From a virus: a stretch of 64,000 bases of DNA. The notes under the pieces were generated by a model, which saw nothing but the letters and a program-made list of their open reading frames with translations, was not told the origin of the DNA and ran no database searches. Below, piece by piece: positions 4,006-12,265 of the stretch; the first letter of the stretch is position 1; each line of letters begins with the position of its first letter. The position numbers were made by a program, and so were the translations under genes. Location of the stretch: positions 135,811-199,810 of the IMG/VR virus record IMGVR_UViG_3300027709_000056. One strand, 5' to 3'.

Positions 4006-4533
4006 TTACCTTCTATTATATAATTTATCATATTTTTTAAAGTACTTCTGTCGCTTCTTTTTAGCCATATTGAGCTTTAGCTTACTTACTCTATCTATAA
4101 AATTAATTCCGTATAAATGGTCGTATTCATGCCCAAATATTCTAGCATTCCAACCTTGTAACTCTATTGTACACTCTTTTTGCTTACTGTCAAGACAATC
4201 TATTATCAATCCAGCTGGACGTTTTACTTTAATATATAAAAAAGGAAAACTTAAACACCCTTCTTCACCTATAATTGTTTCTTCTGTTACGTGAGTTATT
4301 TTGGGATTAATTATAGCAAATGCTTTGTCATCTTCATAGCCTTTTAATTCTACAGGCTTCATAATAAAAATTTGTGCATCTAATTCTACTTGATTAGCCG
4401 CCAATCCGACACCGTGTTTCTCATCCATAATAGATATCATATCGCGTTCTATATCTAAAGCATTATGCTCAGTAAAATCAAACGGCTTTACTGTTTTTTC
4501 TAACCAACTATTTGGAGCTTCTATTAATTTCAT
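4006..4533 (-). CDS. def: peptide deformylase
   Basis: GVGLAANQV, EGCLS and HEYDHL motifs. Confidence 0.95.
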   Translation of the reverse strand: MKLIEAPNSWLEKTVKPFDFTEHNALDIERDMISIMDEKHGVGLAANQVELDAQIFIMKPVELKGYEDDKAFAIINPKITHVTEETIIGEEGCLSFPFLYIKVKRPAGLIIDCLDSKQKECTIELQGWNARIFGHEYDHLYGINFIDRVSKLKLNMAKKKRQKYFKKYDKLYNRR

Positions 4534-5378
4534 CGTAATAAGTTTTTTAATTTTTTTTGTGTTTGTTTGTCGTTAATATTAGGTGTAATGCCATTAATCT
4601 TAATAAACAATGACCCAGTTCTTCTAGTTCTATGATCTGGTAACCCTTGTTCGTGTACACTAAACGTTGTACCAGGGTTTGAACCAGCCGGGATTTGTAC
4701 ATTTAATTTCTTTCCATGGATTGTGTCAACGGCAATACTTGTGCCTTGGATAAGATCAATAACATCAACATTTTTATTTACATAAAGGTCTATACCATCT
4801 ACATCATATATGGGGTGTTTCTTTACACGTATTTTAACATGAAGATCCCCTGGTTGTCTACCTGGAAAGTACTCATTTCCACCCATACCTCTAAAATTTA
4901 TTGTATCTCCAGGGCGTACTCCTCTAGGTATATCAATATTAACTGTATGCTCTTGTCCATTCTGTTGCCTAAATGATGCAATAAAACTTTTACCTGTTAT
5001 AATATCTTCTAATTCAATATCTGCGGCTATTGTTACATTTTGATTTCGTCTTTGTTGAAAGCCACGTCCGAAAAATGGATTATCGCCTCCATTAAACATT
5101 TGGTCAAATATATCTCCTACGTTAATGTTATCACCATGAAAATGATATTGTTGTCCTTGAGGTCTATGTTGGTGTGGATCAGTAGTACCGAATTGATCGT
5201 ACATTGATTTTTTCTGTGGATCTTTTAAAGTATCGTATGCTTCGTTAATTCGTTTGAATTGTTCTTCGTTTCCACCTCGGTCAGGATGGTGCGTCATCGC
5301 TTTTTTCTTAAAAGCGTTTTTAATATCCGTTTCTGAAGCATTTCGAGGAATCTCTAGTATGTCATAGTAATTTGCCAT
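4530..5378 (-). CDS. dnaJ: DnaJ-family co-chaperone, class II/CbpA-like (no zinc finger)
   Basis: J-domain YYDILE...HHPDRGG and C-terminal GDLHVKI...GLP region; no CxxCxGxG repeats. Confidence 0.92.
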   Translation of the reverse strand: MANYYDILEIPRNASETDIKNAFKKKAMTHHPDRGGNEEQFKRINEAYDTLKDPQKKSMYDQFGTTDPHQHRPQGQQYHFHGDNINVGDIFDQMFNGGDNPFFGRGFQQRRNQNVTIAADIELEDIITGKSFIASFRQQNGQEHTVNIDIPRGVRPGDTINFRGMGGNEYFPGRQPGDLHVKIRVKKHPIYDVDGIDLYVNKNVDVIDLIQGTSIAVDTIHGKKLNVQIPAGSNPGTTFSVHEQGLPDHRTRRTGSLFIKINGITPNINDKQTQKKLKNLLR

Positions 5379-6431: not shown

Positions 6432-7145
6432 TTATGGAATAACGTTGGTACTGCCACCTCGATCGGTAGGTAATTGCTGTTCTTGTGTGTTATTATTAGT
6501 ATCTGGGGTACCATCAGGGGATACTAAAGACTCTCCCCCGAGCCAACCGTCAGCTGTTGGTTCATTAAGAGGTACTGGTTCTGGTTCTTTATATGTTTTT
6601 TCAAGTTTAAAGTTTTCTGGTAGTATGTATGGAACAAATTTTTGACGTTCTTCGTTTGTACCTGTATGTGATTCGCCTTTGCCTTTTTTCTTACCAATTT
6701 TTACAGCTATTGTTCCGCCTTTACGTTGTTCGTCAAGACCCCTTAATTGCTTATGCATTTGTCTAGTATATGGTATAACCCAAGCTCGTGGTACAGTAGT
6801 ATTAACCACTAATCCTAACTTATCTATCCATTCCATTTTTTTATCTTCTTCTTTTTTAGGTATTAACCACAAAAAGATGTTACCCTTATTACCAGTTTTA
6901 GGGTTAGGTTCTACAATATAAGAGCCAACAAGGTAATAACTTTCGTTATTAGGGTGTGCATTATACGGAAAGCCATATATTGCTCTTAATCCTATCCAAG
7001 CACTTGATATAGATAATAATAGTGTTATAGTAACTATAGCTTTAACAAACCATCTAGATCTAGATGCAGTAATAAAGATCCATAAGGTTAATGCACCAAG
7101 TAATAATAGTACAAATACTAAAAAGATGTGTCCTTGTATAATCAT
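6432..7145 (-). CDS. membrane protein, third gene of MotA/MotB-like operon
   Basis: Two N-terminal TM helices; start abuts stop of the upstream gene. Confidence 0.75.
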   Translation of the reverse strand: MIIQGHIFLVFVLLLLGALTLWIFITASRSRWFVKAIVTITLLLSISSAWIGLRAIYGFPYNAHPNNESYYLVGSYIVEPNPKTGNKGNIFLWLIPKKEEDKKMEWIDKLGLVVNTTVPRAWVIPYTRQMHKQLRGLDEQRKGGTIAVKIGKKKGKGESHTGTNEERQKFVPYILPENFKLEKTYKEPEPVPLNEPTADGWLGGESLVSPDGTPDTNNNTQEQQLPTDRGGSTNVIP

Positions 7146-7810
7146 TAATTGTCTCCCTGGGAATCTAAGCCACCCATACCTTGAACTATTTGGTAAGGTA
7201 ATTCATTAATATCTGTAATTTTGCCATCTTCGTCTACAGTAAATCTAAGAACAGTTTTTTCTTCACCTTTTATAGTTAACATTACTTCTTTAATATAAAC
7301 GACACCATATGGGTTTAATTTTTCAACATTAACCCTTACAGGTATTATTTCAAAATAATCATTTTTTGCAACATCGTGTCTAGGAGTACGTCTATATAAA
7401 TGTACGTTTACAATATATTCTCCAGGAATGATGCCTCTAATTGTTACGTGTTCTATATTTTGACGGACATAAATTTTGTCGCCAGATGTAGTTGTAATAG
7501 TGTCATTAGATCTACCTAAGTCATCTCTATCTAGATTCATTAAGCCACGATCTTTTTGTTTAAAGCCAACTATATTGCCAGCCGGGTCTTTGACCCAAGT
7601 ATCAATATCGTCTGCACTATTATCAGGCCAGCTAGTTGTTATAATAAATTCTGCAATTACTTCTACATTAGATTTTTTAGCAACTGGATTTATTAAGATA
7701 AAAGCTAAAACAAAAAGGAAAACAAAACCCACTAAGGTATTAAATAGCAAATCAATAAATGCTATTTGGGAACCGTATGTTCTAATTCGATCAAGTCGAA
7801 GAAATCTCAT
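7145..7810 (-). CDS. MotB/ExbD-like single-TM protein with YfaP/DUF2135-like soluble domain
   Basis: TM with intramembrane Asp (AFIDLLFNTLVGFVFLFVL); WP...DIDTWVKDP...LDRDDLG...GEYIVNVHLY pattern. Confidence 0.65.
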   Translation of the reverse strand: MRFLRLDRIRTYGSQIAFIDLLFNTLVGFVFLFVLAFILINPVAKKSNVEVIAEFIITTSWPDNSADDIDTWVKDPAGNIVGFKQKDRGLMNLDRDDLGRSNDTITTTSGDKIYVRQNIEHVTIRGIIPGEYIVNVHLYRRTPRHDVAKNDYFEIIPVRVNVEKLNPYGVVYIKEVMLTIKGEEKTVLRFTVDEDGKITDINELPYQIVQGMGGLDSQGDN

Positions 7811-8321
7811 TCCTGTACCTTTCGAGGTCTTGTTGGAGCCTAAAGTACTGGAATTTTAATAGTGTGCTTGTTATTAAACCGGTAAGTGTAGTGTAAAGAG
7901 CAGTAGACATTCCTACTGCCATGTTTGCCAGTGCTTGTTGAACTGATGATACATCTGATATATTGATTCCATGAAATGCTCCTGCTAACATCAATATGAA
8001 ACCAGCAACAGTACCAATTAGCCCCATTGTTAATAAAACATCCGAAGCGAACCATCCTGTTTCGTGTCGAATGTCTACGTTTTTAATTTCGTCTAATTCT
8101 TTATTTGCTAGTTTACTTAACAACCAGGATTCATAACCGCAATGAACTGTCATACCATAGAAGATGGCCAAGATGAAAAACGATAGTTTCGTTTTATCTT
8201 GTATCCAAAGAGTAGTGTGTACGTCGAATAAAAATAGCCCTATAGTCGCAACTATTAATAAACTGAAGAACCACCACCACTTCAAGAAGATAGTGTGTTT
8301 CCTAATAGTCGATATGTCCAT
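7791..8321 (-). CDS. MotA/TolQ/ExbB proton-channel family protein
   Basis: MGLIGTVAGFILML and GMSTALYTTLTGL helices typical of the ExbB/MotA channel. Confidence 0.8.
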   Translation of the reverse strand: MDISTIRKHTIFLKWWWFFSLLIVATIGLFLFDVHTTLWIQDKTKLSFFILAIFYGMTVHCGYESWLLSKLANKELDEIKNVDIRHETGWFASDVLLTMGLIGTVAGFILMLAGAFHGINISDVSSVQQALANMAVGMSTALYTTLTGLITSTLLKFQYFRLQQDLERYRNEISST

Positions 8322-8365: not shown

Positions 8366-8393
8366 AAAAAAATAGGCATAAGATATGCCTATT
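8366..8393 (-). terminator. rho-independent terminator after spanin genes
   Basis: Minus strand AATAGGCATA-TCT-TATGCCTATT followed by a T run. Confidence 0.8.
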
Positions 8394-8407: not shown

Positions 8408-8794
8408 TTATTTTTTATTTTTATCGTCTTCGGATTCGTAATATTCTTTGTACTGATTAATTATTTCTCTTTGTTTAATAATATATGCTCTTATTTGTGC
8501 AAAATTTATACTAAGAGTTTCATAACCTTCATCTGTGAGTCCGAACAGAACTGGATCGTGACCAGATTGTTTAACCTTTTCAAGAACTTCTGAAGCATTT
8601 TCTGAATTAATTATATACCACTTTAAATCCTCTACTTTAAGCGGATCAGGAAGTTCTAGGTTGAGCGGTTGACGTTCAACTTCTGTTTTAAAAATGTCCA
8701 GCTTTTTTACGGTACTACAACTAGTTGTAAGGAACGTAATTGGGATTAGCAATACTAGGACACTCAGGATTGATCTGAGACTTCTTCGTTGCAT
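8408..8794 (-). CDS. o-spanin-like lipoprotein
   Basis: Signal peptide ending FLTTSC (lipobox-like), Pro-rich segment; overlaps the 3' end of the i-spanin-like gene. Confidence 0.65.
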   Translation of the reverse strand: MQRRSLRSILSVLVLLIPITFLTTSCSTVKKLDIFKTEVERQPLNLELPDPLKVEDLKWYIINSENASEVLEKVKQSGHDPVLFGLTDEGYETLSINFAQIRAYIIKQREIINQYKEYYESEDDKNKK

Positions 8795-9215
8795 TTTTCT
8801 CTTTCTCCGTTAAAGGTGAACCTGTAGCGATTTCAAAACATCTATTCGCATTTGCGGTACCTTTGTTAATGACTTTTTCCATAATTTTTGCTTTTTTAAG
8901 AGCAAGGGCGCCTACATCACGCTTTTTGCCTGATGCATTTACTTTATTAAATTTTTCTTCTGTATCTGCTAGTTCTTTAGCAAGTGTTAAGTTTGTTTCT
9001 TGTAATTTTTTACTAATTTCTTGTTGTTTTTTAAAATCAGCTTGTACTTGTTCTATAACAGCTCTTTGATCAGAAATGCTTTGTTCTAATTTCATATTAT
9101 TAGCTTCACTAACAGCCAGGTCAGCTTTAAGTGTTTTTACATACACATAAGCACCACCAATACCGCTGAGTATTGCTAATATTATTAAAATTTTAACGGT
9201 ACTAAATATTCCCAT
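8721..9215 (-). CDS. i-spanin-like protein
   Basis: N-terminal TM, long coiled coil, two C-terminal Cys; TAATG-coupled to the ACP-like gene. Confidence 0.65.
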   Translation of the reverse strand: MGIFSTVKILIILAILSGIGGAYVYVKTLKADLAVSEANNMKLEQSISDQRAVIEQVQADFKKQQEISKKLQETNLTLAKELADTEEKFNKVNASGKKRDVGALALKKAKIMEKVINKGTANANRCFEIATGSPLTEKEKNATKKSQINPECPSIANPNYVPYN

Positions 9216-9436
9216 TAACAACTCTCCGCTAATTTAATTATATCATCTACAGTAACAAGATGTTCCATTTTATCTTCAGGCATAGTAATACCTGCTTTTT
9301 CTTCTATGGCACAACAGATCTCAATCATATCCATATCGTCGCCATCTAAGTCGTCGATTATACTATGTTTAGGTTCTATTACTACATCTTGTCCAAAATG
9401 TTCGTGTAATGCTTCCATTACTTTTTCTTTAATCAT
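9215..9436 (-). CDS. acyl carrier protein-like, phosphopantetheine Ser replaced by Asp
   Basis: SIIDDLDGDDMDMIEICCAIEEK aligns with ACP [27 protein letters not shown] SD before ATG 9436. Confidence 0.8.
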   Translation of the reverse strand: MIKEKVMEALHEHFGQDVVIEPKHSIIDDLDGDDMDMIEICCAIEEKAGITMPEDKMEHLVTVDDIIKLAESC

Positions 9437-9438
9437 TT

Positions 9439-9591
9439 TTACTCCATATCTACAGTAGCCTGGCCCCAGGCTGATTCTTCGTATCGGGCGTGGTAACAAA
9501 CTATAATTTCTATTGGTTTATTATCGCCATCTTTAAATTCTTCAACTAATCTACCTTCGTGTTCACGTCCACAGTTTTGACACGTTCTCAT
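9439..9591 (-). CDS. 50-aa CxxC/His putative metal-binding protein (not in ORF track)
   Basis: Manual: MRTCQNCGREHEG...VCYHARY...; ATGA overlap with endolysin stop. Confidence 0.65.
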   Translation of the reverse strand: MRTCQNCGREHEGRLVEEFKDGDNKPIEIIVCYHARYEESAWGQATVDME

Positions 9592-10112
9592 ATCATATTT
9601 AAGGCTATGTTCGATGTTTCGCTTACTCGTCTACTCCAGCCTCTTCCAAATGTTTCAAATGTGGATAAACTTTCGTAATATCCTTGCCTAGCATCTTGGT
9701 ACTCACGGATTGCTATTTCTACACCGTTTGCTTCAACAAATTCGTTTACTTTACTAATTGTATTTGGGCCTATAGCCCCATCTACTCCTGCTCCGACTAG
9801 CTCTTGTAGGTATCTAGCGGCTCGTCCTGTGCCAGCGTTTACGCCAAAGTCGAATACGCACAGATCTAGACCGGCGGGCAAATCGTTTGCATGAACTCTG
9901 CCCCAGTAGTTCTTTTCATAGATAGGAGCAACATCATCTTCAGTTAATGCTTTCATAGTGTCAGCATCAACTTCGTGTCCTACCCATTCTTCATAAGTCC
10001 GTTTAGTAACACCCATATTAGTGATACCACCCGGGTCTTTAGGATGATTAACGTAACCACCTTCATGGTCTAAGATTATCGAAAGTGCGTCTCTGTAATT
10101 CTCTCTCGCCAT
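9588..10112 (-). CDS. endolysin, glycoside hydrolase family 108 with PG-binding domain
   Basis: HEGGYVNHPKDPGGITNMGVT motif; C-terminal FGRGWSRRV. Confidence 0.92.
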   Translation of the reverse strand: MARENYRDALSIILDHEGGYVNHPKDPGGITNMGVTKRTYEEWVGHEVDADTMKALTEDDVAPIYEKNYWGRVHANDLPAGLDLCVFDFGVNAGTGRAARYLQELVGAGVDGAIGPNTISKVNEFVEANGVEIAIREYQDARQGYYESLSTFETFGRGWSRRVSETSNIALNMI

Positions 10113-10121
10113 TTTAATCCT

Positions 10122-10835
10122 TTACTGTTTTGATAATACTAATGTGTAACCTGTGTTTTCAATTAAATACTTGTCACCATATTTTGCAATATCATAATCT
10201 CCTAAATATTTAGTAAGGAAAATAATCTCTGCAAAAGAATTGGCGTCATATGATTCAGTAATTTTATTAAACATATCTGTTGATTTACCAAAATCATTAA
10301 CTTTAAATCTTATTGGTTCTGCGTACTGTTTTTTAAATGTGAGGTTGTCTTGCAATAATTCAATGCTGTCTACATAGCTTTTTTTGAAAAAGTTTTTATA
10401 GTTGTTTAAGTTATTTTCGTTAACTCTAATTTCATACCCTTCAACATCTAAAGGTACTGTTTCAGCTATGTTTATTTCATCAGCTTTTAAGCTATCAAAA
10501 CTTTTGTAGTATCTAAATTTAAGGTCATCTAAATCGGCTAGTTTTTGTACACCATCAACTATTTCAGTAATTTGTGATGGAATATCTCTTCCACGTTCTA
10601 GTTCAACAAAAACTTTATATGTTCCGTCAGGTTGTTCACCTGATGTTACATCTGAATCTAATACAAATGGATAACCTTTTTCTAGAAAGTTCATTAAGTC
10701 TTTTGCTGGCTCTTGTGCCGCAACAGAAAAACTTAATACAACAATATCTTTATCTTCACCCATTTTTGATTTAAATGAGTCAATTTCAAAAATATCATAA
10801 ACTAAATTTCTAAGATCTTTTGCTTGTAAACCCAT
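10122..10835 (-). CDS. hypothetical protein
   Basis: Long ORF coupled to its neighbour. Confidence 0.75.
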   Translation of the reverse strand: MGLQAKDLRNLVYDIFEIDSFKSKMGEDKDIVVLSFSVAAQEPAKDLMNFLEKGYPFVLDSDVTSGEQPDGTYKVFVELERGRDIPSQITEIVDGVQKLADLDDLKFRYYKSFDSLKADEINIAETVPLDVEGYEIRVNENNLNNYKNFFKKSYVDSIELLQDNLTFKKQYAEPIRFKVNDFGKSTDMFNKITESYDANSFAEIIFLTKYLGDYDIAKYGDKYLIENTGYTLVLSKQ

Positions 10836-11554: not shown

Positions 11555-12265
11555 ATGAGTAATAAACGAGCCAAACGGCATCTTCAAAATACGAGTAATA
11601 TTATTAACTTTCAATCACATAGAAAAGACATTAAAATACTTCCCCGAAACAGAAACCAAGAATCTTATATGCTAAAACTAATGGATCCGCAGAAAGACAT
11701 AGTCTTCGGAATTGGTCCTGCAGGAACTGGTAAAACGCTTTTAGCGGTACAGGTGGCAGTTAAGCTGTTTCAAGGTGGTATTGTGGATAGAATTGTGGTT
11801 ACTAGACCGGCGGTAAGCGTCGACGAAGATTTAGGATTTTTACCTGGAACATTGGAGCAAAAGATGGCTCCATGGACAATGCCAATTTTTGATGTATTTA
11901 AAGAACATTATACCCAACACCAAATTCAAGGTATGATTAATGAAAATATTATCGAGATTGCACCATTGGCCTATATGCGAGGTAGAACTTTTAAAAATGC
12001 TTTCATAATTGCAGATGAAATGCAAAATGCTACTACAGGTCAAATGAAGATGTTATTAACACGGTTAGGAACAAAATCACAAATGGTAGTTACTGGTGAT
12101 TTGCGTCAAGCAGATAGAATGTCTAGTAACGGACTATTAGATTTTATAAAACAATTAGAACGATTTAATAAAACTAGGCATATTGATGTTGTACGTTTCC
12201 ATCAAGGAGATATTGAACGTCATAATGCTGTACGAGAAGTTCTACAAGTTTACGGAGATGAGTAA
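11555..12265 (+). CDS. phoH: PhoH-like ATPase
   Basis: GPAGTGKT, LGFLPG, YMRGRTF, IADEMQN, TGDLRQAD. Confidence 0.95.
   Translation: MSNKRAKRHLQNTSNIINFQSHRKDIKILPRNRNQESYMLKLMDPQKDIVFGIGPAGTGKTLLAVQVAVKLFQGGIVDRIVVTRPAVSVDEDLGFLPGTLEQKMAPWTMPIFDVFKEHYTQHQIQGMINENIIEIAPLAYMRGRTFKNAFIIADEMQNATTGQMKMLLTRLGTKSQMVVTGDLRQADRMSSNGLLDFIKQLERFNKTRHIDVVRFHQGDIERHNAVREVLQVYGDE

Follow-up and report, generated by a model that had tools for sequence, protein, structure and literature searches.

The window, by which we mean the whole 64-kb stretch of DNA analyzed here, makes up the final 64 kb of an IMG/VR record 199.8 kb long (34.7% G+C; CheckV completeness 56%), and carries on its minus strand a lysis operon with the order endolysin, orf50, ACP-like gene, i-spanin and o-spanin (Table 1). 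The overlap between orf50 and the endolysin stop is 4 nt long, and 2 nt separate the end of orf50 from the ATG of the ACP-like gene, which is itself preceded by a GGAG at a distance of 8 nt, while the stop codon of the ACP-like gene (TAA, 9217-9215) shares a single base with the start codon of the i-spanin gene (ATG, 9215-9213). The TAATG coupling to an i-spanin-like gene that a first-pass annotation of this DNA had described was thus confirmed. The same annotation had placed the ACP-like gene between endolysin and spanins, and it was right about the GH108 endolysin upstream and the spanins downstream, but it had overlooked orf50, which lies in between. The ACP-like reading frame is thus coupled on both sides within the operon, and is predicted to be co-translated with the lysis genes.

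The two genes downstream have the features of a two-component spanin of the Rz/Rz1 type, namely an i-spanin with a TM segment and a coiled coil, an o-spanin lipoprotein gene that overlaps the i-spanin gene (here by 74 nt), and an endolysin nearby (GH108, two genes upstream). C126 and C152 of the i-spanin were invariant in our alignment, and the ...LTTSC of the o-spanin was a loose fit to a lipobox. We found no Pfam or PHROG match for orf50; most related loci have it in this place, between endolysin and i-spanin, whether they carry the ACP-like gene or lack it, and it may be a component of the lysis cassette in its own right. A T4-type late promoter (TATAAATA) was absent near the cassette, and the whole window contained 1 match to this motif versus 13 expected by chance.

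Table 1. Features of the lysis region and its surroundings, in window coordinates.
Feature	Position	Strand	Support or remark
Single-TM protein, 135 aa	5736-6143	-	Accessory gene
Terminator-like hairpin and T-run just past the o-spanin stop	8371..8393	-	Probable end of transcription unit
o-spanin, lipoprotein signal ...LTTSC	8408..8794	-	phrog_812, 1.2e-10; overlaps 3' end of i-spanin gene
i-spanin, Rz-like: N-terminal TM, coiled coil, two conserved periplasmic Cys	8721..9215	-	phrog_739, 1.5e-9
ACP-like gene, serine-less carrier-protein fold	9215..9436	-	73 aa, pI 4.3; PP-binding 23.2 bits and ACP fold (TM 0.77-0.84)
Codon GAT (Asp34), position of the phosphopantetheine Ser of ACPs	9335..9337	-	Codon and family alignment
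orf50, 50-aa CxxC...CxH zinc-ribbon-like protein	9439..9591	-	Between endolysin and ACP-like gene
Endolysin, GH108 and PG_binding_3	9588..10112	-	Pfam 7e-30 and 2.9e-6; phrog_315, 1.7e-48
Two virion structural protein genes, 237 and 191 aa	10122..11410	-	phrog_13138 and phrog_12928; always upstream of the cassette
Sigma-70-like promoter match (10/12) ahead of endolysin	10133..10162	-	Consensus match only
PhoH	11555-12265	+	Divergent

The product of the ACP-like gene is strongly acidic (20 D+E versus 6 K+R) and resembles bacterial type II fatty acid synthase (FAS) ACPs (AcpP, PF00550), especially in their apo form, in its length (73 versus 77-78 aa), its four helices and its acidic pI. It matched Pfam PP-binding (PF00550) at 23.2 bits, above the cut-off of 20.8, and PHROG 5934, labeled "acyl carrier protein", at 1.9e-7. 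A profile of the ACP-like family found solved FAS-type ACPs, including H. pylori ACP at 4e-9, and aligned with E. coli AcpP at 6e-5 over residues 2-67 versus 4-70, which covers helices I-IV; the match to AcpP that the first-pass annotation had limited to helices II-IV is therefore real and wider than was claimed. The AlphaFold model (pLDDT 78.7) contained helices at residues 2-14, 37-48, 54-57 and 63-72, and Foldseek comparison with FAS ACP structures gave TM values of 0.77-0.84; the protein is ~25-33% identical to solved ACPs.

The difference from AcpP lies at the cofactor site. On the minus strand, codons 9340-9338, 9337-9335 and 9334-9332 read GAC GAT ATG and encode D33, D34 and M35 where ACPs have D-S-L, exactly as had been noted from the letters alone, and in a profile alignment the D/E column of the family falls on the Ser of the AcpP DSLD motif. 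The ACP-like protein thus lacks the conserved D-S-L Ser that marks a type II ACP, with Asp34 in its column, which bears on the earlier statement that an ACP without this Ser cannot be loaded by AcpS. As far as its sequence and predicted model tell, it has a genuine ACP fold that cannot be phosphopantetheinylated at that site, and because the cofactor Ser is lost, the sequence excludes a role as carrier. The 199.8-kb record contained no phosphopantetheinyl transferase (PF01648) and no second carrier protein, which is weak evidence since the record is only 56% complete.

Relatives of the ACP-like protein were reached via metagenome proteins and IMG/VR. In our first scan of IMG/VR, the peptide pattern fixed D or E at the site in question, so the 39 loci from that scan were unusable for scoring Ser versus Asp, and we repeated the scoring on 80 IMG/VR loci seeded with the i-spanin alone and hence blind to the residue at the site. 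The ACP-like gene was present in 29 of these 80 loci, and Ser was found in none. In 27 of the 29 carrier loci the gene lay directly upstream of the i-spanin gene, with Asp at the site in 18 and Glu in 9; in the other two (L057 and L067) it lay one gene downstream of the o-spanin gene and the site was Pro. Close homologues (74-95% identity) had D or E and Ser in 0/11, and all loci pooled gave 41 distinct sequences with Glu in 26, Asp in 14, Pro in 1 and Ser in 0. The comparison of Ser with Asp among homologues, which had been proposed in the first-pass annotation, therefore came out without a single Ser in the distinct, close or unbiased sets. An exhaustive HMMER search returned 1353 matches at E<=1e-3, mostly ordinary Ser-bearing ACPs, among which were also more distant small proteins with D or E and a common N-terminal "...HFG" helix, and no match was obtained when 50,697 phage records were searched by tblastn with the 73-aa sequence. 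We rejected a sequencing error or isolated mutation at Asp34, since no fewer than two base changes separate a Ser codon from an Asp codon and Ser is absent in all relatives.

The acidic replacement of Ser has been selected and is no accident. All four acidic codons (GAA, GAG, GAC and GAT) occur at the former Ser site of the relatives, and a maximum-likelihood tree implied ~9 changes between D and E, at least 3-4 of which are forced by well-supported branches, with a non-acidic state arising only once. Only one quarter of the nonsynonymous single-base changes from Asp yield Glu, yet the exchange between D and E recurs and 40 of 41 distinct relatives have one or the other, from which we infer selection for an acidic side chain. 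Among the same 41 sequences, D33 and D36 were invariant and position 39 was always acidic (E/D); these residues correspond to AcpP D35, D38 and E41, and were likewise kept in the unbiased, i-spanin-seeded set. The start of helix II, D-x-[hydrophobic]-D with the D35/D38/E41 equivalents, is common to AcpP and the ACP-like protein, whereas the equivalents of AcpP E47 and E48 (E45 and E46) are not conserved in the family, position 45 varying across subfamilies between E and Q and position 46 among E, N, S and K. The ACP-like family differs further from AcpP in having Asp or Glu (one Pro case) at the 4'-phosphopantetheine Ser, and in being phage-encoded, inside a lysis operon.

For the ACP-like gene, median dN/dS was 0.19 over 170 within-subfamily pairs; we used these pairs and set aside the cross-subfamily value of 0.54 as saturated. 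All 41 distinct sequences, with identities as low as 32%, had intact reading frames. The dN/dS of 0.19 indicates a gene that is under purifying selection and functional, and a loss of Ser that, judging from the relatives, is ancient and fixed in this marine family.

These values bear directly on the idea that the gene descends from a phage ACP that once functioned, is now in decay and persists only through linkage. The patchy distribution (29/80 loci) and the lost Ser are what such decay might leave behind, but dN/dS of ~0.19, open frames in every distinct sequence, invariant docking acids and a former Ser site that is acidic save for one Pro case all speak against it, and we consider it very improbable.

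Across the related loci, the lineage shares a backbone consisting of PhoH on the opposite strand, two virion genes, a variable endolysin, orf50, the ACP-like gene where present, i-spanin and o-spanin, followed past the o-spanin by small membrane proteins, DnaJ and peptide deformylase. The ACP-like gene was absent from 51 of the 80 i-spanin-seeded loci, and the commonest architecture was one without it, so that it is an accessory gene that the cassette does not always include. Where it lay upstream of the i-spanin gene, it overlapped the i-spanin start in every locus whose gene boundaries were read. The endolysin beside it varied in type or was missing, and we rejected an obligate pairing with either orf50 or the endolysin, since there were loci with the ACP-like gene that lacked both, and the reverse. 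The 135-aa single-TM protein listed in Table 1, for which we found no Pfam match, co-varied with the ACP-like gene (15/23 versus 5/41 loci; Fisher 3e-5, uncorrected for phylogeny). In L057 and L067, the Pro variant of the ACP-like gene was translationally coupled to the gene for the 133-aa form of this single-TM protein (L057:4342-4743).

Two further features of the region downstream of the spanins were observed. Directly after the o-spanin gene, at 6432-8321 on the minus strand, genes for a MotA/ExbB-family protein (Pfam 1.9e-9) and two membrane proteins have been inserted; this insertion was found only in the sub-lineage of the window (L002, L010-L014 and L049-L053), and in sister lineages small membrane proteins take its place. 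At 4006-5378 on the minus strand, just downstream of the lysis region, lie genes for a complete DnaJ (J domain and DnaJ_C) and a peptide deformylase, whose position is conserved across the lineage.

The virion proteins of the record were ~24% identical to those of RaK2-like jumbo phages (GAP32, RaK2 and 121Q). The i-spanin was 48% identical to a gene of Pelagibacter phage HTVC008M, which gives a weak hint of a SAR11-like host. In HTVC008M itself (L129:4001-4534), the i-spanin homologue matched in two pieces over the hypothetical CDSs gp145 and gp146, which suggests a frameshift or mis-annotation.

Among cultured jumbo phages, an ACP gene lies immediately upstream of an Rz-like i-spanin and o-spanin in GAP32, CBB, XbC2 and Kaldavass (Mimasvirus) and in fHe-Yen9-03/04 (Eneladusvirus); a 2020 paper on Eneladusvirus had remarked on an ACP near a spanin-like gene (PMC7760394), and beyond that remark we found no description in the literature of an ACP in a lysis cassette. 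The ACPs of these RaK2-like phages (GAP32_159, CBB gp163, XbC2_157 and fHe-Yen9-04 g153) share with the ACP-like protein the slot directly upstream of i-spanin and o-spanin and the PP-binding domain, but they keep the Ser (L-D-S-L-D), gave no tblastn match to the ACP-like protein, and in CBB, XbC2, Kaldavass and fHe-Yen9-04 have an N-terminal extension of ~55 aa. The genes flanking these cassettes also differ from those of the window lineage. Homology of the window i-spanin to the Rz-like spanin of GAP32 was examined and rejected, none being detectable (hhalign probability 0.3%). The cultured ACP-spanin sets were located at L135:2402-3407 (GAP32), L136, L137, L143 and L144, and the i-spanin of XbC2 was annotated as "structural protein".

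Stand-alone small ACP homologues without FAS partners are encoded by other phages as well (PHROG 5934; Erythrobacter phage vB_EliS-R6L ORF32 and Ralstonia phage RSL1 ORF083), and the role of such orphan ACPs, vB_EliS-R6L ORF32 being one example, has been called unclear (PMC5463345). In this respect they are like the window protein, but those of RSL1, BCSR5 and 10AMN retain the Ser, and the ACPs of RSL1 and BCSR5 do not adjoin spanins. The literature held no description of a serine-less phage ACP family or of selection for an acidic residue at this site. Elsewhere, we observed a Glu-type serine-less look-alike (P0048, L131/L132:5001-5240) beside YfdP and DUF2303 genes, in an island of a Rickettsiales MAG that carries an integrase and resembles a prophage, and a D/E-type look-alike of 120 aa (P0028) between a 5'-3' exonuclease and a Prim-Pol in the replication module of a phage contig. 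The occurrence of D/E-type look-alikes in unrelated phage and prophage contexts suggests that their role is not tied to one phage partner.

Our preferred, if tentative, explanation is that the ACP-like protein is a permanently unloaded ACP mimic that acts purely by protein binding, most likely as a decoy for a host enzyme. It would occupy the basic ACP-docking site of an enzyme that uses acyl-ACP or holo-ACP, candidate targets being the acyltransferases that make phospholipids or lipid A, or else AcpS, and envelope lipid synthesis would be shut down while lysis proteins accumulate. The D-x-hydrophobic-D-x-x-E face is what ACP clients and AcpS recognize, and the ACP-like protein appears to have kept this acidic N-terminal half of helix II, the ACP docking face, which fits a binding mimic. 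An unloaded ACP can be toxic, since apo-ACP strongly inhibits PlsB (glycerol-3-phosphate acyltransferase) and halts the growth of E. coli (PMC3896788). The absence of Ser, the invariant docking acids, the operon coupling and this precedent for apo-ACP toxicity together support the mimic. SpoT, which had been named earlier among the possible targets, is an unlikely one, because SpoT does not bind apo-ACP according to the same review (PMC3896788).

As for the residue that replaced Ser, it would serve the proposed mimic by keeping the start of helix II stable, and it may also imitate the charge of the phosphodiester. The former Ser site is the first residue of helix II, and D, E and Pro are residues favored at the first turn or first position of an alpha-helix. 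Since the set {E, D, P} matches these helix-start preferences at least as well, charge mimicry is not needed; the first-pass suggestion that the Asp imitates the charge of the phosphate is thus possible but not required, and one sub-lineage has Pro at this position.

The lack of conservation at the equivalents of AcpP E47 and E48 counts against a decoy. So does the adjacency of ACP and spanin genes across distant phages, for which a generic host decoy offers no ready explanation, since one aimed at host lipid enzymes would not require spanins as neighbors, and the fact that this adjacency extends to distant relatives with Ser suggests a spanin- or lysis-linked role common to both forms. The protein could accordingly be an accessory to lysis whose partners are spanin or membrane proteins of the phage itself, with the ACP fold as an adaptor made in a fixed ratio to the i-spanin, a reading that we regard as somewhat unlikely. 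Such a factor could reach the periplasm together with the endolysin once the membrane has been opened by the holin, or associate from the cytoplasmic side with one of the phage's inner-membrane proteins, and so tune the last step of lysis. It would account for the position directly upstream of i-spanin in 27/29 unbiased carrier loci, for the Mimasvirus and Eneladusvirus ACPs that stand directly before i-spanin and o-spanin despite different flanks and a non-homologous i-spanin, for the relocated gene of L057 and L067 that is coupled to the 133-aa membrane protein, and for the membrane protein that co-varies with the ACP-like gene, a count that is uncorrected for phylogeny. However, only ~8 residues of the i-spanin face the cytoplasm and the ACP-like protein lacks a signal peptide, so that contact between the two would need a breach of the membrane, and adjacency may simply be inherited gene order. 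Most related cassettes function without the ACP-like gene (51/80 lack it), and any contribution that it makes to the cassette is therefore dispensable. To our knowledge, no accessory factor of ACP type exists for any spanin, which we also count against this reading. In its broadest form, this reading would make the ACP fold an unrecognized helper in the spanin-mediated lysis of RaK2-like jumbo phages, ancestrally loadable (with Ser, as in the enterobacterial phages) and in the marine lineage cofactor-independent and charge-locked, which would connect disruption of the outer membrane with either envelope lipid metabolism or a membrane partner; we think this unlikely.

Alternatively, the gene might belong to the end of a structural block that happens to adjoin the lysis genes, and its product might be a small acidic virion-associated protein that is packaged, ejected and active at the start of the next infection. 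In loci without an endolysin, the ACP-like gene directly follows the two virion structural genes, and ACPs have been recovered from particles of other phages, the Ser-type ACPs of three Eneladusvirus phages by LC-MS/MS of purified preparations (3-5 spectra, 8-15% coverage; PMC7760394) and the ACP of a Vi01-like phage once by virion MS (PMC10892097). These spectral counts are very low, though, and the same preparations hold unexpected DnaJ-like and nucleotide-metabolism proteins; moreover, no N-terminal targeting or cleavage motif is conserved across the ACP-like subfamilies, and in the window lineage the frame is coupled to the spanin and not to a structural gene. We thus consider packaging of the ACP-like protein to be improbable.

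Beyond what the first-pass annotation had proposed, the analysis establishes that the ACP-like gene is accessory, that a Ser-bearing ACP precedes the spanins in cultured RaK2-like phages, and that phosphate mimicry is not required. Phage ACP homologues are catalogued as "auxiliary metabolic genes"; here, a whole lineage is unable to carry, yet has been selected with its docking face intact, and the database label "acyl carrier protein" is misleading for such serine-less genes. The conserved slot beside the spanins, which is common to the culturable, Ser-bearing phages GAP32, CBB and fHe-Yen9, offers an experimental handle on the link to lysis. If a host target were found, the ACP-like protein would offer a natural means of inhibiting an essential step that depends on ACP. 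On the evidence of its sequence, the "phage ACP" would shift from a presumed lipid-metabolism gene to a probable protein-binding effector.
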